Source: Ostreococcus lucimarinus
Taxonomy: Eukaryota
Length of the DNA: 64,000 nt
Assembly: GCA_000092065.1 (NCBI GenBank)
Contig: CP000581.1
Direction: 5' to 3' (one strand)
The notes below the pieces were generated by a model. The model searched no databases, was not told where the DNA came from, and saw nothing but the letters and a program-made list of their open reading frames with translations. Shown piece by piece: positions 26,479 through 53,904 of this stretch (position 1 is the stretch's first letter; each line of letters opens with the position of its first letter). The translations under genes were made by a program, and so were the position numbers.

Positions 26479-28188
26479 TTGACGAGCGCGCGAGTCGTGC
26501 GAACGCTTTCGACGACGAGCGAAAGCGACGCGATGGCGACTTCATCGCCTCGTACGCGGGTGATTGTTTGGTTTCGGAACGACTTGAGGTTGTTGGACAA
26601 CGCCGTCGTCGCTCGAGCGGCGGCTCTGCGCGGACAATCGGACGCCGCTGAGGTCGTCCCGGTGTACGTGTTCGATGAGACGTTTTTTAAGACATCCAAG
26701 CGCGGTCTCGCGCGCTTCGGTGCAGGGCGTGGGAAGTTTACGATTGAGTGCGTGGACGACTTGAAGCGCGCGCTTCGCGGCGTCGGCAGCGACTTGTTGG
26801 TGCGTTGCGGCAAGACGGAGGATGTCATCACCGAGCTCACGCTCACGGGTGCGAACGACAAAACGATCGTGCTCACGCAAACAGAGGTGACGAGCGAGGA
26901 GACTGATATGGATAGGGCGGTAGAGAGGGCGTCGAAGGAGCGAGCTCGAAGCGGCGGCGCGTCGGCGTCGATGGAGCGTCTGTGGGGGTCGACACTTTAC
27001 CACGCCGACGACCTCCCGTACGACTTCGCCGGAGGTCTACACGATTTACCAGATGTGTTCACGCCATTTCGGAACAAGGTAGAGTCAAAGTGCTCAGTGC
27101 GAGCGGTAGTGCCCGCGCCGACGGCGAACGCTCTGGGAAGCGTACCGGCGTCCGTGGCGGGGTTGGATTGGATGCCTGAACCGAAGGATTTGCCTTTCGC
27201 GTCGGCCGAAATCGCCCCGGCGTGCGAAAAATGGCTCAAAGATGGCGCAGACGAGCGCTCTGTGCTCGAATTCAAGGGTGGCGAATCCCAAGCCTTGGCT
27301 CGCGTCAAGTATTATTTGTGGGATAGCGATTTGCTCGCGACGTACTTTGAAACTCGCAACGGGATGCTGGGCGGCGACTACAGCACCAAGCTCGCACCGT
27401 GGCTCGCCTTAGGATGTGTGTCGCCGCGCTACGTCGTGAGCGAGATTCGACGCTACGAGAGCGCGCGCGTTGAGAACAAGAGCACGTATTGGGTAATATT
27501 TGAGTTGATATGGAGAGACTTCTTCAAGTTCTTCGCGCTGAAACACGGGAACAAAATCTTCCATCTCGACGGTACGGCTAACAGGACGGCATCTTGGAAG
27601 AGTGATGAGAAGATCTTGAAGGCATGGAAGACAGGCACGACCGGATACCCACTCATCGACGCCAACATGCGCGAACTCGCGGCGACTGGTTTCATGTCGA
27701 ATCGAGGGCGACAAAACGTCGCCTCGTGGCTCGCCCTCGACGCCGGCGTCGACTGGAGACACGGTGCCGATTGGTTCGAGCACCACTTATTGGATTACGA
27801 CACCGCTTCTAACTGGGGGAACTGGTGCGCCGCCGCCGGTATGACGGGCGGTCGCATCAACCGCTTCAACATCGCCAAGCAAACCAAGGACTACGATCCC
27901 TCTGGCGACTACGTCAAGCGTTGGATCCCGGAACTCCGCGAGATCCCCGCGGCGTACATCACCGAGCCCAACCAAGCCCCTCGCGAGCTTCGCGATCGAA
28001 TCAGTCTCGATTACCCGAACAAGCTCAATCTCCCGAGGCGTGACTTCACGGAAATGGGGTCTCCGCCCGGGCCGAAGCGCGGCGGCGGTCGCGCCGCCGG
28101 CGGCGGTCGAGGCGGTCGAGGCGGGCGTTCGAAATCTCGCGGCCCCAAGGCCCACGCCGTGAGCGTGTACGACCACGTGTACGGTTAA
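26479..28188 (+). CDS. CRY-DASH: Cryptochrome DASH (photolyase/cryptochrome family). The ATG is near 26533 (MATSSPRTRVIVWFRNDLRLLDN...). C-terminal Gly/Arg-rich tail.
   Basis: N-terminal photolyase alpha/beta 'VIVWFRNDLRLLDN'. FAD-binding 'WREFF', 'FMSNRGRQNVASWL', 'DWRHGADWFEHHLLDYDTASNWGNWCAAAG'. The sequence, ending '...RINRFNIAKQTKDYDPSGDYVKRWIPEL', is typical of CRY-DASH. Confidence 0.9.
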   Translation: MTSARVVRTLSTTSESDAMATSSPRTRVIVWFRNDLRLLDNAVVARAAALRGQSDAAEVVPVYVFDETFFKTSKRGLARFGAGRGKFTIECVDDLKRALRGVGSDLLVRCGKTEDVITELTLTGANDKTIVLTQTEVTSEETDMDRAVERASKERARSGGASASMERLWGSTLYHADDLPYDFAGGLHDLPDVFTPFRNKVESKCSVRAVVPAPTANALGSVPASVAGLDWMPEPKDLPFASAEIAPACEKWLKDGADERSVLEFKGGESQALARVKYYLWDSDLLATYFETRNGMLGGDYSTKLAPWLALGCVSPRYVVSEIRRYESARVENKSTYWVIFELIWRDFFKFFALKHGNKIFHLDGTANRTASWKSDEKILKAWKTGTTGYPLIDANMRELAATGFMSNRGRQNVASWLALDAGVDWRHGADWFEHHLLDYDTASNWGNWCAAAGMTGGRINRFNIAKQTKDYDPSGDYVKRWIPELREIPAAYITEPNQAPRELRDRISLDYPNKLNLPRRDFTEMGSPPGPKRGGGRAAGGGRGGRGGRSKSRGPKAHAVSVYDHVYG

Positions 28189-47708: not shown

Positions 47709-50030
47709 CTACTTTTTATACTCGTATTCGATGCGCAAACGCCGCTCCGTTCCCTCACCGACGGCGCTATGACTTAGCATGTACGTGTCCACCAACGCCT
47801 GTTGCATTTCGATGATGCGTCCCGATCGAGGCAATAGCTCGACAGGCTCGCGATGGGGAATGACGAGCTGCTCGACGGCCATGCGCACCTCTTCCAGGGC
47901 ATCCGTTTCATCCGCGCTCGACGTAGTCGCTCGCTGTCTATTTTCTTGAGCACCACTTCCTCCGTTAAATCCATCACTTGCACCCGTTATGCCTAACATG
48001 GCTTGCAAAGCGCGAACGAGCTGCGCCGAGTTATCTGCCCGCACGGCGTAAATCGGCATACCTCGCGCTCTAGCCGCGTGTCGTAGCCACGTGGACGTCT
48101 TCACTTGCGATTTTGGCGCAATGACCACGCTCGCGTCTTCAAGAAGGTCAACCAAGCACACTCGATCACCCAAGTCCATGCTCTCCATGACGCGCTCCAG
48201 AGCGTCGCGACTAACTTTGAACGGAAACACTCGAAGAGCGTGCGGAGGGCACGTGTTGTCGTCTTCGTCGTCTTCGACGTCGTTCACGATGACGTCTTCG
48301 CCGCCGAGTTCGAAACGCGTGTTATCCACAAACTGTTGCGTCGTCGACGATGATCGACGTCGCGATGCGCTTGCGATTTCTAAAGCCGCGAGCTCAGAGC
48401 TCGATCGAGGCTGGACTTTTTGCGCCGTCGGTCGAGGCGCCGTCGCGTCGTACGCTAGGATTTCTCCAAGAACGCTCGCCTTTCGGCGACTTGTGTACTC
48501 TGCCTCCGTCGTCACCGTTCCATCTTCGTTCAGAACGCGTAGTTCGGTCATCGGCGACTGCCCCGCGAGTAAAGCGTCGACAGAAGCCGCGACGTCGGTG
48601 TGAACTCTCCAAGTGCCGATGTCGAGCATTTCCACGGCGATGGTAAACGTTGGTGGACCCGCCCTTTCGAGCACACTCTTCTGGACCCCTCGTCTACGTG
48701 CTTCGTCGTCGCCAAGAGTGACGCTCACAACACCACCTATCAAATCACATAACGCCGGGTTCTTCAAAACGTTCTCCAGCGTGTGTCCGTGCGCCGTACC
48801 AATCATCTGCACGCCTCGCTCGCTGATGGTTTGCGCTGCGTCCGCCTCTTGCTGCGTGCCGATTTCATCAACCACCACCGTCTGGGGCGTGTGATTTTCC
48901 ACGGCTTCGATGAGCACGAGATGCTGTTCGCTCGCGTTCGGGACTTGCATTCGACGGGCACCACCTATACCGCGATGGGGAACGTCGCCGTCGCCCCCGA
49001 TTTCATTTGACGTATCAACGATGACGACACGGCGAGAATGCTCATCCGACAGAATGCGAGAAATCTCTCGAATAGCCGTCGTTTTTCCTACACCAGGCCG
49101 TCCGAGAAGTAGTATCGAATTATTAAACGTCGTCACCGACGTTTCGGCGTCCAAAACGTCCCTGATAAGTTCGGCAGAACCCGAGATCGCGCGTCCGACT
49201 CGACACGTCGCGCCGATGACTTTGCCGTAACGATTCTTAATCGCGCTTATTCTGTGCAAAGTCCCGTTGATACCCGCGCGATTATCTCGTCCGACGTCTC
49301 CAACCTTTGTCATCATTCTATTCAAATCTTCGTACGTCACGAGCTCGTCCCCGATTGTGGCATCGCCGTCCGGAAACCGCGCCTTTGGTAGTCTTCCCAA
49401 GTCGAGCACGACTTCGGTGAGCTCGAGCCTTCGCGCGTCTTCCGCCAACGCCCGTCGCACGCGCTCGGGCGCCGCGTCGAGCAATAGCGCAATTTCTTTT
49501 TCGCTCGTCACCGCCGCCAGCGTCGCTCGCTTTCGAGCGGCGAGCACGTCCTCCTTCGTCAACGCCAACGCGCCCGCGCTCGAGGACGTCGACGTCGCGT
49601 CGTCGGCGTCGTCGACGGCGTCGCGCCGCGTCGCGCGCCGAGGGCTGGCGCGGCGCCATCGCGCGCTTCGTCGTCCCTTAGTCCACCCGTCGCACCGCGC
49701 GGACGCGGACGCGGACGTCGACGTCGTCGTCGGCGCCCCCCGCATCGCGCGTCGCCGTGTGTCGCGGCGTCCCGCGCGCGCTCGGACCGCCGGACCGCGG
49801 GCACGAGGCACGACTGACTCGCGCGCGTCACAACGCGCGCGCGCGACGAAGGCGACGCACCGACGCCTCGATCGCGTCGTCGGCGTCGTCGTCGAAGTCG
49901 CCGTCGCCATGGGCTCGCCCGGCGGACGCAGCGCCGTCGTCATCGCGTGCTGGTACACCGCCAACGTCGGCGTGCTGCTGCTGAACAAGTACATCTTATC
50001 CGTGTATGGGTTCCGATTCCCGGTGTTCAT
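47709..50030 (-). CDS. Ycf45-like / SpoIIIAA-family R3H-domain P-loop (AAA) ATPase with an S/T-rich plastid-type presequence. The start is probably the internal Met near 49910 or further downstream.
   Basis: 'LLLGRPGVGKTTAIREISRIL' Walker A, 'VVVDEIGT' Walker B, 'QMIGTAHGHTLENVLKNPAL', and R3H-like 'VTYEDLNRMMTKVGD'. Confidence 0.75.
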   Translation of the reverse strand: MNTGNRNPYTDKMYLFSSSTPTLAVYQHAMTTALRPPGEPMATATSTTTPTTRSRRRCVAFVARARCDARESVVPRARGPAVRARAGRRDTRRRAMRGAPTTTSTSASASARCDGWTKGRRSARWRRASPRRATRRDAVDDADDATSTSSSAGALALTKEDVLAARKRATLAAVTSEKEIALLLDAAPERVRRALAEDARRLELTEVVLDLGRLPKARFPDGDATIGDELVTYEDLNRMMTKVGDVGRDNRAGINGTLHRISAIKNRYGKVIGATCRVGRAISGSAELIRDVLDAETSVTTFNNSILLLGRPGVGKTTAIREISRILSDEHSRRVVIVDTSNEIGGDGDVPHRGIGGARRMQVPNASEQHLVLIEAVENHTPQTVVVDEIGTQQEADAAQTISERGVQMIGTAHGHTLENVLKNPALCDLIGGVVSVTLGDDEARRRGVQKSVLERAGPPTFTIAVEMLDIGTWRVHTDVAASVDALLAGQSPMTELRVLNEDGTVTTEAEYTSRRKASVLGEILAYDATAPRPTAQKVQPRSSSELAALEIASASRRRSSSTTQQFVDNTRFELGGEDVIVNDVEDDEDDNTCPPHALRVFPFKVSRDALERVMESMDLGDRVCLVDLLEDASVVIAPKSQVKTSTWLRHAARARGMPIYAVRADNSAQLVRALQAMLGITGASDGFNGGSGAQENRQRATTSSADETDALEEVRMAVEQLVIPHREPVELLPRSGRIIEMQQALVDTYMLSHSAVGEGTERRLRIEYEYKK

Positions 50031-50907
50031 GACGCTGTGTCACATGTGCATGTGTTCGGTGTTATCCGCGGCGGCGAGAGAGTTTAAGATCGTGCCGAAA
50101 CAGTTCATACGGACGAGGCGACACTACGCCAAGGTGGCGGTGCTGGCGGTGACGTTTGCGCTGTCGGTGCTGGGAGGAAACGTGTCTCTGAGGTACATTC
50201 CAGTGAGCTTCAATCAAGCGTTGGGAGCGACGACACCATTCTTTACGGCTATTTTTGCGTATCTCATGCTGCGTAAGAAGGAAACGACGGCGACGTACAT
50301 GACGCTCATCCCCGTCGTCGGGGGCATAGCCGTGGCGACGTGGGGCGAGCCGAGTTTCAATTTTATTGGGTTCTGCGCGTGCCTCGTCGGGGTGTGCTGT
50401 CGAGCGTTAAAATCGGTGTTACAAGGATGGCTACTGACTCCAGCGGGGGAAAAGGAGGCGGAGAAAATGTCCAACTCGAACGAGAACAAGCTCGACAGTA
50501 TGTCGCTTCTGTACTACATGTCGCCGGTGGCCATCGTGACGCTCGGAATTTGCACTTTCATCATGGAACCAGACGCAATATCGGCATTTTATGACGCGGC
50601 TGAGATGAATCCGCCATTCATTGCCATTCTCTTAGGAAACTGTTTCGTGGCGTATCTCGTCAACCTGACGAATTTTCTCGTCACGGCGCACGTCGGCGCG
50701 CTTTCGCTTCAAGTTCTCGGCAACGCGAAGGGCGTCGTGTGCACTATCGTTAGCATCATGCTCTTCCGTAACCCGGTGACGTTTCGCAGCGTAGCTGGAT
50801 ACACGATTACTATGGTCGGTGTTTGGCTTTACTCGTCGAGCAAGCGGCGTAGCGCCCGTTTGCAGGTCATCGAGAACGCCAACAAAAACTTAGCCTCAAA
50901 GGTGTAG
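49909..50907 (+). CDS. Triose-phosphate-translocator/DMT-family sugar-phosphate or nucleotide-sugar transporter. The track ORF 49267..50907 is N-terminally over-extended and the real start is the Met at about 49909.
   Basis: 10-TM DMT topology. 'GNVSLRYIPVSFNQALGATTPFFTAIFAYLML' is the TPT/KT signature. Confidence 0.75.
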   Translation: MGSPGGRSAVVIACWYTANVGVLLLNKYILSVYGFRFPVFMTLCHMCMCSVLSAAAREFKIVPKQFIRTRRHYAKVAVLAVTFALSVLGGNVSLRYIPVSFNQALGATTPFFTAIFAYLMLRKKETTATYMTLIPVVGGIAVATWGEPSFNFIGFCACLVGVCCRALKSVLQGWLLTPAGEKEAEKMSNSNENKLDSMSLLYYMSPVAIVTLGICTFIMEPDAISAFYDAAEMNPPFIAILLGNCFVAYLVNLTNFLVTAHVGALSLQVLGNAKGVVCTIVSIMLFRNPVTFRSVAGYTITMVGVWLYSSSKRRSARLQVIENANKNLASKV

Positions 50908-51281: not shown

Positions 51282-53426
51282 TTACACGCTTCTACCTTCT
51301 AGACGTTCTAGACGTGCGAGAACGCGCGCGGTGGACGAACGATTGAATGAGCTGTGTCGAAACTCGACTTCGTGTACGGCATGGTCGGTGAGCTCGCCTT
51401 CGTCGCCTGAGAAATCGAAATGCCCAATGACGAGCGATTCGTCGACACCGTCGTGTTTCGAAAAGCGTCCCAACACGATGGGATACCATATCGCGTCGTC
51501 CTCAGGCATATCTGCATACGGTATTTCTTGTTGTTGAAACCACGTCGGAATGATGTCAGCTGACGCGCGCGCGTGAGTTGGAAACAACTTCGCGACGCTC
51601 GTGCCGTCGCGAAACGCGCACACAAATTCGTGCTCGACGGCGAGACCACCATCTGGCATCCAACCGCGAAATACGAAGCGCGCGGCTTCAAAAAGATCTT
51701 TCGGATCGTTCAAAGCATCGCACGCCAAGGGGTTGAGACCTGCTTCCTCTAGTGCGACGGACCGAGCGACGTCCAGTGGGACTAAATCCTTCTCGCTGTC
51801 GACTTCGGCGATGAAGCCGGTGTAGCGGCCGGCGAATTCGCCGCGCGTGTGCTTCCCCAGCAGGATGCGACCGTTGGCGACGTCCAAAACGAGAAGCTGA
51901 GCAAAACGCTTTGGCGGTCTCGTAAGCTCTGATTTCGGGTACACCTGCTTGTCGATCATATCGGCGAGGTTGTCGCTGGCGCGAGTGACGTTTTGTCCGA
52001 CGTGATCGCCTTGTGTCCGCGGTTCGTACGCTGCATTCAACGGACGATGCGGAGTGACAAACTGTGGAAGTGGCGCAATGACGGCGTCGTCGTTGAGACC
52101 GTTGAATCTCACGAGCGATAATCGATCTCGTCCATCGCGAGATGGTCGAACGCGATGCGGCGTCGCGCGTACGACTCCGTTTGTAAAAATCTCGAAAGCG
52201 TCCGACAGAATGCACGTAAAAATGGCCTCATTCTCGTACGCCGGCGCCGAGCGCCACGCACCATCTCGCCCTTGGAGCTCTAATCCTTCGCACGTCTGAT
52301 GAAGAAGTGTGAAGAATTCAAAGTCTGTGTGCTCCGAGATACCAACTATTTCCACTTTCGACGCGGCGATTCGTTCGCTGCGTCGCGTAGTCGAGTCCTC
52401 CTCGTTCGCTTCGTCATCCACTTTCATCGATGGATATCGCATTGCGCGCATGCTGCAGTGTGACGTATTGCCAAATTTCTTTACCCAGACGTCTTCGTCG
52501 TCGACGTGAAGCGCCTTCGCAAAGCATCGATACAGCGTCCTCGCCGCGCCATCGCACGCGCTGTAAAAACTGCAAAACGCACTTTGCATCGCGGGCACCT
52601 CCACCGGCCAATCCATAGGTCCAAGTCCTCGTGCCGCGTCGTCACCTCGTTCGTCTCGCACTTGCTCAATCTCACATGAGCTCAACTCTCGAACGACATC
52701 AAACGACTCGACGAGCGCGGCTGTTTTCTTTTGGTAAGAGTACTCTTCCAGCAGGGGCACGAAACCACCGCTCTCGTTCGCGTATTGCGAGTGTACGTAC
52801 AGCGCCTTCACGTCTTCTGGCAGCGAGAAGAACGTTCGGGCGATGTCGTACGTGCGCGCGACGTCGAACGGCGCGACGCGCGACGTTGACGCCTCGCCGA
52901 CGTCTCGAGCGTCGAGCTCGAAGTAACCGACACGCTCGCTCGACGTCAGCGCTTCACCCAGACGCGCGATTTCGACGTCGTCGCCGTCCGCGAGCTTGAT
53001 GAGAGATACTCGCGGCACGCTGTCGCTCGCGTGCATGACGCGACGAGCGATCGAACGAGGAGAGTCGTCGCTCACGTCGTCGTGTGACGCGCCGATGCAC
53101 GAAAAACTCCTCACACGACGACGTGGGCGACGACGAATCGAACGACGACGAATCGCGAGCAAGATGACGAACGCGACGAGCGAGCGAGTTATTGGCGTCG
53201 CCCACGACGTGCTGCCACAACGAGCGAAGAAGAAACCGCGACGAGACACAGCGATGACGGAGAGGACGGCTTCGACTTCTTCGGCGGCTGAGGCCGACCC
53301 GACGCCGCTGACGACGGACGATGAGGACGTTCGACGGGGATTCGAAAGCACGGACGCGCGCGTCGTGCGATACGCGCCAGAACACGATGACTTTCGAGCG
53401 CGCGAGGACGAAGACGAAGACGACAT
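51282..53426 (-). CDS. Fusion protein: N-terminal 2-oxoglutarate/Fe(II)-dependent oxygenase (DIOX_N plus 2OG-FeII_Oxy) and C-terminal NUDIX hydrolase domain. The likely true start is near 53066 (MHASDSVPRVSLIKL...).
   Basis: 'HTDFEFFTLLHQ...RATPHRV' (HxD...H facial triad, RxS). Nudix box 'GKHTRGEFAGRYTGFIAEVDSEKDLVPLDVARSVALEEAGL' (Gx5Ex7REVxEExG). Confidence 0.7.
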   Translation of the reverse strand: MSSSSSSSRARKSSCSGAYRTTRASVLSNPRRTSSSSVVSGVGSASAAEEVEAVLSVIAVSRRGFFFARCGSTSWATPITRSLVAFVILLAIRRRSIRRRPRRRVRSFSCIGASHDDVSDDSPRSIARRVMHASDSVPRVSLIKLADGDDVEIARLGEALTSSERVGYFELDARDVGEASTSRVAPFDVARTYDIARTFFSLPEDVKALYVHSQYANESGGFVPLLEEYSYQKKTAALVESFDVVRELSSCEIEQVRDERGDDAARGLGPMDWPVEVPAMQSAFCSFYSACDGAARTLYRCFAKALHVDDEDVWVKKFGNTSHCSMRAMRYPSMKVDDEANEEDSTTRRSERIAASKVEIVGISEHTDFEFFTLLHQTCEGLELQGRDGAWRSAPAYENEAIFTCILSDAFEIFTNGVVRATPHRVRPSRDGRDRLSLVRFNGLNDDAVIAPLPQFVTPHRPLNAAYEPRTQGDHVGQNVTRASDNLADMIDKQVYPKSELTRPPKRFAQLLVLDVANGRILLGKHTRGEFAGRYTGFIAEVDSEKDLVPLDVARSVALEEAGLNPLACDALNDPKDLFEAARFVFRGWMPDGGLAVEHEFVCAFRDGTSVAKLFPTHARASADIIPTWFQQQEIPYADMPEDDAIWYPIVLGRFSKHDGVDESLVIGHFDFSGDEGELTDHAVHEVEFRHSSFNRSSTARVLARLERLEGRSV

Positions 53427-53904
53427 GCGAGCGCGAAGAGGAGTGCAATACGCTTATAAAGACCACACGGCTGACATTCAGATACACGCCTGGGGATGCG
53501 ATCTCGCTGAAGCCTACGCCTGGGCCGCGCTGGCGATGTTTGATTACATGACCCCGCTGGAGGACTGCGCTCGAGTGCGGACGACGCGATTCAAGGAAAT
53601 ACGCGCGAGCGGGCATGATTTAGACACCTTGCTCTTCGCATTTCTCGACGAGCTTTTGTTCACGTTTCACACAGAGATGCTCATATGCACGGCGGTGCAA
53701 GTTTGCGAGTTCAATCGAGACGAATGGAGTATTCGAGCAGTTGTGGGCGGGACGACGTTCGTCGACGGTGAGACGCGTCAAGGCACGGAGATTAAAGCCA
53801 TCACATACAGCGCGATGAAAATCATAGAACGAGGCGAGATTAGCAAAGACGATGAAAGCACCGGAGTACATCGCGCAGAGTTGTTCGTCATCGTTGACAT
53901 TTAG
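53425..53904 (+). CDS. Archease (RtcB tRNA-ligase cofactor). The track ORF starts at 52996, but the protein almost certainly starts at the Met near 53425 (MRARRGVQYAYKDHTAD...).
   Basis: 'YAYKDHTADIQIHAWG', 'LLFAFLDELLFTF', and the C-terminal 'GTEIKAITYSAMKI...ELFVIVDI' match the archease family end-to-end. Confidence 0.85.
   Translation: MRARRGVQYAYKDHTADIQIHAWGCDLAEAYAWAALAMFDYMTPLEDCARVRTTRFKEIRASGHDLDTLLFAFLDELLFTFHTEMLICTAVQVCEFNRDEWSIRAVVGGTTFVDGETRQGTEIKAITYSAMKIIERGEISKDDESTGVHRAELFVIVDI

Follow-up and report, generated by a model that had tools for sequence, protein, structure and literature searches.

The stretch of DNA analysed here, hereafter the window, comprises 64,000 nucleotides of contig CP000581.1 from Ostreococcus lucimarinus (NCBI GenBank assembly GCA_000092065.1). 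On its minus strand, positions 51282..53036 encode, in one exon and with no internal stop, a protein of 584 amino acids (aa) followed by a stop codon. The protein includes an N-terminal Fe(II)/2-oxoglutarate (2OG) oxygenase domain of the isopenicillin N synthase (IPNS) type, a conserved helix with a very short linker, and a C-terminal domain (C-domain) that has the Nudix fold of MTH1/NUDT1 and lacks the catalytic residues of that enzyme. The features of the gene are as follows, with the evidence for each in parentheses.

51282..53036, minus strand: coding sequence (CDS) of the two-domain protein (continuous open reading frame, ORF; public 584-aa models with the same start; orthologue alignment; ratio of nonsynonymous to synonymous substitution rates, dN/dS)
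52017..53036, minus strand: Fe(II)/2OG oxygenase of the IPNS type (probable DIOX_N plus double-stranded β-helix, DSBH), residues 1–340 (Pfam; PDB sequence matches; AlphaFold2, AF2, model with Foldseek)
52116..52331, minus strand: catalytic core, with the iron triad H236-x-D238...H294 and the 2OG-binding motif R305-x-S307 (alignment)
51936..52016, minus strand: conserved C-terminal helix of the oxygenase (TQGDHVG..VTRASDNL) and very short linker, residues 341–367 (alignment and model)
51357..51935, minus strand: Nudix-fold domain of the MTH1/NUDT1 kind that lacks the catalytic residues ("MPxDD" clade; residues 368–560) (phmmer; AF2; Foldseek)
51735..51818, minus strand: degenerate Nudix-box remnant GFIAEVDSEKDLVPLDVARSVALEEAGL, residues 407–434 (alignment to human MTH1)
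51624..51638, minus strand: invariant VEHEF strand with E468, H469, E470, and F471 (fusion-family alignment)
51480..51509, minus strand: invariant MPEDDAIWYP motif with P511, D513, D514, and W517 (fusion-family alignment)
53037..53426, minus strand: upstream 130 codons of a 714-aa ORF, non-protein (divergent intergenic region and antisense of an archease CDS)

The preliminary description of this locus, made from the sequence alone, had placed a 2OG-Fe(II) oxygenase and a Nudix-fold domain in a single polypeptide, and this was borne out: the two domains lie in the same frame of an uninterrupted minus-strand ORF that ends at 51282, and no stop codon or frame change was found across their junction. 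Both domains are collinear in ~40 homologous protein clusters (560–770 aa) from many independent assemblies, and the alignment of the fusion protein with 21 homologues (22 sequences in all) is collinear, with insertions confined to loops. The protein is 100% identical to a public protein cluster found on hundreds of marine metagenome contigs. The orthologue of O. tauri (XP_003074709.1, UniProt Q01FD5; 580 aa, 54–56% identity) has the same two domains and the invariant residues; other fusion clusters probably come from Micromonas- and Bathycoccus-like genomes, judging by their amino-acid composition. These identities mark the window as nuclear DNA of an Ostreococcus-type prasinophyte (Mamiellophyceae). 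The dN/dS ratios, calculated by the Nei–Gojobori method against one relative with 89% amino-acid identity (locus L010), were 0.19 for the oxygenase domain, 0.23 for the MTH1-like domain, and 0.21 for the whole gene. Both domains are under purifying selection, and the C-domain is being maintained rather than decaying. The window is eukaryotic and GC-rich and holds many spurious long ORFs, including a false 130-codon extension of this very gene (described below), which might lead one to suspect that two adjacent genes, a missed intron, or an assembly join had produced an apparent fusion. Such an origin is exceedingly improbable for a protein that is uninterrupted and recurs collinearly in O. tauri and in the other clusters, with both halves and the linker between them under purifying selection; because of this collinearity and this selection, chance, a frameshift, and an assembly artefact can be excluded.

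The junction between the two domains is short and conserved, and consists of the C-terminal helix of the oxygenase (residues 342–362 in the AF2 model) followed by P-P-K-R-F-A-Q. T341, Q342, G343, H345, V350, A353, and L357 of this region are invariant in the 22 sequences. The full-length AF2 model has a predicted local distance difference test score (pLDDT) of 84 and a predicted template modelling score (pTM) of 0.86, and this pTM together with the short conserved linker suggests that the two domains are packed against each other in a fixed arrangement.

The oxygenase domain had been described as complete, and it largely is. The domain scores 41.6 bits with PF03171 (2OG-FeII_Oxy; cut-off 23, E = 1.6e-10), and it has the HTD...H triad and the RxS motif. 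The DIOX_N part of the description holds less firmly, as the match stays below threshold in this protein (21.1 bits against a cut-off of 27.3) and passes in the O. tauri orthologue (28.1 bits). H236, D238, H294, and R305 are invariant in the 22 sequences; position 307 is Ser in the O. lucimarinus protein and Ser or Ala in the family. Sequence comparison of the N-terminal domain with the PDB identified 9ovh (E = 4.7e-16) and 6jyv, and the iron triad and RxS align to the corresponding residues of both. Foldseek comparison for the N-terminal domain matched whole IPNS-like structures, with template modelling (TM) scores of 0.74–0.85 to 6jyv, 3oox, 9ovh, and thymine-7-hydroxylase (T7H). Thus, the closest solved relatives are the uncharacterised bacterial IPNS-like proteins 6jyv and 3oox, the ancestral ethylene-forming enzyme (EFE) 9ovh, and the fungal T7H, an enzyme of free nucleobases. 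The oxygenase apparently is catalytically competent, as judged from these residues, and it belongs to the small-molecule branch of the superfamily, not to the AlkB/TET nucleic-acid branch. Enzymes of the IPNS/DOXC-type class, T7H and EFE among them, oxidise small molecules.

A disordered, charged insert (residues 207–225; 52362–52418, minus strand) separates the "MRYP" strand of the oxygenase from its HxD strand. Its length is highly variable: the insert is absent in the homologue P0002 and exceeds 80 residues in Micromonas-like homologues.

The C-domain is recognised less readily. Whereas the oxygenase was found by Pfam, the Nudix assignment of the preliminary description had no counterpart there: Pfam NUDIX (PF00293) did not match the full protein or the isolated C-domain even at E ≤ 10, and NCBIfam gave no match to the whole ORF or to the isolated C-domain. 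The fold was nevertheless recovered by comparison with MTH1. When residues 366–584 were compared with the PDB by phmmer, the matches were solely MTH1/NUDT1 chains (26 distinct sequences, E values from 6e-10 to 3e-8). The AF2 model of the C-domain has a pLDDT of 89 and a pTM of 0.87, and its best 50 Foldseek matches in the PDB were all MTH1, with a TM of 0.85 (normalised to MTH1) and 26–27% identity. Because both searches led to MTH1 throughout, the Nudix fold and the MTH1 ancestry of the C-domain are confirmed.

The Nudix box of this domain had been reported as intact on the basis of the stretch RSVALEEAGL, which in fact has S and V where the motif requires R-E. Neither the expression GX5EX7REUXEEXGU nor its REUXEE core alone matched the ORF or the 40 family members, whereas human MTH1 matched. 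The motif positions are occupied in the fusion protein by A, K/L, S, V, A, E, E, G, and L. The alignment from "AR" to "EExGL" is ungapped, that is to say, R50-R51-E52-L53-Q54-E55-E56-S57-G58-L59 of MTH1 corresponds to R425-S426-V427-A428-L429-E430-E431-A432-G433-L434. Compared with human MTH1, (i) K23 is replaced by His; (ii) G36, G37, and K38 are replaced by I409, A410, and E411, respectively; (iii) R51 and E52 are replaced by S426 and V427; (iv) E430 and E431, the equivalents of Glu55 and Glu56, are present in the O. lucimarinus protein, and the orthologues have TN, EN, LG, RR, EM, or gaps at these positions; and (v) the equivalent of Glu100 is Asp, which is unconserved among the orthologues. 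Neutron and time-resolved crystallography of MTH1 revealed that Gly36, Glu52, and Glu56 bind metals, that Lys23 and Lys38 bind phosphates, that Glu52 deprotonates the nucleophilic water, and that catalysis requires Glu100; Arg51 shows complete conservation within the Nudix motif (PMC12305053). The same study assigned base recognition to Asn33, Asp119, and Asp120 (PMC12305053). All 6 positions of the catalytic and phosphate-binding set (K23, G36, K38, E52, E56, and E100) are thus replaced or unconserved in the fusion family.

These replacements bear directly on the function first suggested for the gene, the coupled oxidation and pyrophosphate hydrolysis of a nucleotide-linked substrate, which rested on an intact Nudix box that is absent here. 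A bifunctional enzyme whose Nudix domain hydrolyses the pyrophosphate of the substrate that the oxygenase oxidises would agree with the fold and ancestry of a nucleotide pyrophosphohydrolase, with the retention of E430 and E431 in the fusion protein itself, and with the frequent fusion of enzymes of one pathway. We regard it as very unlikely, given Val for Glu52, Ser for Arg51, Ile for Gly36, His for Lys23, and Glu for Lys38, the lack of conservation of the Glu55, Glu56, and Glu100 equivalents among orthologues, the failure of Pfam NUDIX and of the motif expression, and the lack of Glu52 in all 89 representatives of the wider clade (described below).

The loss of the catalytic set is accompanied by the conservation of another set of residues. 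The invariant C-domain residues of the fusion family are Q380, H396, G399, F401, T406, G407, I409, P420, A424, E450, F456, G458, W459, E468-H469-E470-F471, P506, M510, P511, D513, D514, W517, Y518, G538, F540, and F542. Many of them correspond to residues of the MTH1 base pocket, as follows.

D513 and D514: MTH1 D119 and D120; kept; the pair that reads the base
F456: MTH1 F72; kept; base pocket
W517: MTH1 W123; kept; pocket
F540: MTH1 F139; kept; pocket
T406: replaces MTH1 N33; base recognition
Q380: replaces MTH1 L9; pocket
E468 and E470: replace MTH1 V83 and V85; hydrophobic pocket
P511: replaces MTH1 W117; pocket

The remodelled positions are those that we take, from structures of MTH1 with inhibitors, to line its base pocket. 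The base pocket has thus been retained but turned from hydrophobic to polar and acidic. This pattern also bears on the idea that the C-domain is purely a structural or oligomerisation appendage of the oxygenase, or a lid over it, with no small-molecule ligand of its own. The apparently tight packing of the domains in the model (pTM 0.86, short conserved linker) would suit such a part, and in IPNS-type oxygenases a C-terminal segment often covers the active site. The invariant residues cluster at the positions of the MTH1 base pocket instead of spreading over a surface, and the same pocket signature occurs in standalone proteins that carry no oxygenase; a purely structural role is accordingly unlikely.

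To place the C-domain among its relatives, its profile was compared with 1.84 billion representative proteins, which gave 687 matches at E ≤ 1e-3. The 12 matches at E < 1e-30 all belong to the fusion family, and they are followed by many proteins of 150–330 aa. The 135 domains that were listed and classified fall into 3 groups (positions numbered as in MTH1).

"MPxDD" clade, 89 of 135: signature MPxDDxxW(Y/F); Glu absent from positions 52 and 56 throughout
Canonical MTH1, 24 of 135: strict Nudix box; all 24 have the complete set of catalytic residues
Other, 22 of 135: neither signature; in 16 (e.g., P0268 and P0300) the box is non-strict but the catalytic residues of MTH1 are present

P117, D119, D120, and W123 are present in all 89 MPxDD representatives, Glu83 in 84, Thr33 in 77, Gln9 in 75, and Glu or Gln at position 85 in 70. 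Among the 22 other domains, 5–6 have residues of the clade type (T33, I36, and E83). Because no domain among the 135 listed combines the MPxDD signature with the strict Nudix box, we assign the C-domain to a coherent clade that is sister to MTH1, comprises at least 89 clusters, and has had its catalytic set replaced wholesale.

Most members of this clade are standalone proteins, many of them of 150–220 aa, and they occur on both bacteria-like and eukaryote-like contigs. A word-indexed homologue search with the clade profile returned 6 proteins, none of them named. Standalone relatives pass Pfam NUDIX marginally (21–34 bits), and some have been named "ADP-ribose pyrophosphatase" by annotation pipelines. 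The genomic context of 6 standalone members (L001–L009) revealed no adjacent 2OG oxygenase and no recurrent neighbour, and therefore offered no Rosetta-stone support and no hint of a substrate. One of them, P0176 (at least 24 contigs), lies in marine metagenome loci L002–L005 (e.g., L003 1648–2142) between 2 class-III aminotransferases, with an aldehyde dehydrogenase, an APH-type kinase, and an acyl-CoA dehydrogenase nearby; these loci are bacteria-like, and P0176 and the genes nearest to it lie on opposite strands.

The module also occurs with other partners. The MPxDD module is joined to DUF7831 in P0238, where the Pfam match is clear; to an ArsC/glutaredoxin-like domain in P0258 (at the Pfam threshold) and P0280 (below it), with ArsC-like partners also in P0271, P0256, and P0219; and to a degenerate dCMP-deaminase-like domain in P0182 (sub-threshold), with a deaminase-like partner also in P0241. 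In P0206, P0221, and P0225, the module is followed by an unassigned C-terminal domain with the pattern ...GWxxxAPPxAxKxDLIRxL...YQxWRDxW. Outside the clade, P0268 (460 aa) is an MTH1 duplication-fusion of eukaryotic origin: it contains 2 canonical MTH1 domains in tandem, and the Nudix box is intact in both.

The acidic residues of the pocket might themselves be catalytic. The cluster of E468, E470, D513, and D514 could carry out a different chemistry, for example on a nucleoside base or sugar or on a guanidino or amine compound. The conservation of Glu83 (84 of 89), Glu or Gln at 85 (70 of 89), and both D119 and D120 (89 of 89) would fit this, as would the many standalone members of 150–220 aa on bacteria-like and eukaryotic contigs, a distribution usual for enzymes. 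The standalone loci examined hold no conserved genomic partner that points to a reaction, and the positions concerned presumably line the base pocket of MTH1, so that their conservation fits binding at least equally well. We know of no Nudix-fold enzyme that makes catalytic use of positions of this type, and a new chemistry of this kind seems to us improbable.

Taken with the alternatives weighed above, the data lead us to propose, with a probability of roughly 55%, that the protein is an oxygenase carrying a non-hydrolytic, MTH1-derived ligand-recognition module. It would act as a single cytosolic 584-aa protein whose halves have different jobs. The N-terminal two-thirds would oxidise a small molecule as a Fe(II)/2OG oxygenase of the IPNS/DOXC type. 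The C-terminal third, descended from an MTH1-type hydrolase that lost its metal- and phosphate-binding machinery and kept and remodelled its base pocket, would not hydrolyse pyrophosphate. We infer that it binds a ligand, most likely a polar or cationic nucleobase-like compound, and that it either captures the substrate and delivers it to the oxygenase or serves as an allosteric gate on oxygenase activity. A non-hydrolytic recognition role is favoured because the catalytic set is lost while the base pocket is kept, and a role as an accessory module because the module recurs with ArsC-like, DUF7831, and deaminase-like partners. Several observations weigh against this proposal: (i) a catalytic or metal site of a non-canonical kind could be made up by E468, E470, D513, and D514, which are acidic and invariant; (ii) E430 and E431 are retained in this species, so that some residual activity is possible on sequence; (iii) standalone clade members are common, which means that the module works alone and fits an enzyme as well as a binder; and (iv) no partner-domain match other than that to DUF7831 rises above its Pfam threshold.

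Should the module prove to be a sensor of a ligand or a device for substrate capture, it would provide a handle on the substrate of the oxygenase in the ecologically dominant picoalgae Ostreococcus and their relatives, and it would add an MTH1-derived member to the short list of Nudix pseudoenzymes. A broader idea can be offered only tentatively, and we consider it rather doubtful: the MPxDD proteins would be a widespread sister family of MTH1 that exchanged pyrophosphatase activity for the recognition of, or a new chemistry on, a polar or cationic modified nucleobase or nucleotide, which in the Mamiellophyceae would be handed directly to a 2OG oxygenase, such that damaged or methylated free bases or nucleotides are repaired or catabolised by oxidation instead of hydrolysis. 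If true, marine picoalgae would have a new way of sanitising the nucleotide pool or salvaging nucleobases. The naming of clade members as "ADP-ribose pyrophosphatase" despite their lack of catalytic residues calls for caution in annotation.

The start of the gene was placed with the help of its neighbour. The preliminary description had extended the gene to 51282..53426, a 714-aa ORF; the real CDS is shorter, and codons 1–130 of that ORF (53037..53426) are not protein. These codons are of low complexity and rich in Ser and Arg, and none of the orthologues has an equivalent stretch. Part of the stretch is antisense to the following gene, given here for context only.

53164..53904, plus strand: archease gene (Pfam Archease, E = 1e-35; start set by N-terminus conservation)

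The archease N-terminus MTNATSERVIGVAHDVLPQRAKKKPRR is kept in the relatives' loci L010 and L011. The orthologues and the 584-aa members of the identical public cluster begin at the ATG at 53036 (MHASDS...). Because the archease N-terminus is conserved and the orthologues and public models begin there, we set the CDS start at 53036; the 714-aa start was rejected for its antisense overlap with the conserved archease CDS and its lack of orthologue support.

The archease and fusion genes lie head-to-head, and the 127 bp between them are the divergent promoter region. The same head-to-head pairing is found in 2 related Ostreococcus-type loci, L010 (archease at 1–744) and L011 (724–1467). The archease has an N-terminal extension of ~90 aa with a basic KKKPRR stretch, which is conserved among the relatives. 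Further neighbours are a PLD-like gene, a TPT-family sugar-phosphate transporter, and a Spore_III_AA/PTPase (Ycf45-like) ATPase. The window is gene-dense, with 53–67% G+C and many long spurious antisense ORFs. The 773-aa ORF at 47709–50030 (minus strand) is Ycf45-like, with domains of the Spore_III_AA-type AAA ATPase and PTPase-like kinds. Opposite it, and overlapping it with its 5′ part, lies the 546-aa ORF at 49267–50907 (plus strand), whose TPT domain begins only at about residue 223. The 546-aa ORF is another mechanical ORF over-extended upstream into its neighbour.

ARAGORN called 2 tRNA genes in the window: a tRNA-Ser(cga) at 52852–52939 (minus strand), inside the oxygenase CDS, and a 94-nucleotide tRNA-Ala(cgc) at 28055–28148 (plus strand). 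A search of Rfam at the gathering threshold found no tRNA or other RNA family anywhere in the window. The tRNA-Ser call, lacking Rfam support, was rejected and is almost certainly a false positive; the tRNA-Ala call could be an intron-containing eukaryotic tRNA or spurious.

Neither fold of the fusion protein is new, and databases already list the gene as a dioxygenase. XP_003074709.1/Q01FD5 of O. tauri is annotated merely as "Oxoglutarate/iron-dependent dioxygenase", and Pfam sees only 2OG-FeII_Oxy and DIOX_N in it. Literature searches for the O. tauri accession and for Nudix–2OG fusions retrieved nothing relevant, and the searchable literature, InterPro superfamily-level annotations aside, yielded no mention of the MTH1-like domain, its pseudoenzyme character, or the MPxDD clade. 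The fused MTH1-derived domain and the MPxDD clade thus appear to be unrecorded.

Comparison with the IPNS/DOXC oxygenases of known structure (Pseudomonas aeruginosa 6jyv, Caulobacter crescentus 3oox, the ancestral EFE 9ovh, and Neurospora crassa T7H 5c3p) shows a common DSBH with HxD...H and RxS, together with a probable DIOX_N part. The fusion protein shares 19–25% identity with them at the TM scores given above (0.74–0.85), a level of identity at which no substrate can be transferred. These proteins are single-domain proteins of ~300–340 aa, whereas the fusion protein adds the variable acidic/basic insert and a 215-aa MTH1-like C-terminal extension.

The C-terminal MutT-like domain of MutY and NrtR are non-catalytic Nudix-fold recognition domains. 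Inactive Nudix-fold ligand binders are also known in the NUDT9-H domain of vertebrate TRPM2 (PMC4974056, PMC6461439) and in CFIm25/NUDT21 (PMC2425470). In all 4 cases, the Nudix fold was kept for the recognition of a ligand or nucleic acid after mutation of the box and is tied to another unit, and by analogy the C-domain may have followed a similar path. The C-domain is not a member of those families, which derive from other Nudix branches (NUDT9/ADPRase, NUDT21, and MutT), and none of them is joined to a 2OG oxygenase: they work with a channel, an RNA-processing complex, a glycosylase, or a DNA-binding domain.

The closest known counterpart of the C-domain is human MTH1/NUDT1 itself, the pyrophosphohydrolase of 8-oxo-dGTP and 2-oxo-dATP. 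The two have in common the fold, the Asp-Asp pair, W123, F72, F139, and the C-terminal pattern WF..IP..M..DD..W.P. By contrast with MTH1, the C-domain (i) does not have the Nudix box, K23, G36, K38, R51, E52, or a conserved E56 and E100; (ii) has Thr in place of N33; (iii) has Gln, Glu, and Pro in place of the pocket residues L9, V83, and W117; and (iv) is fused to another enzyme.

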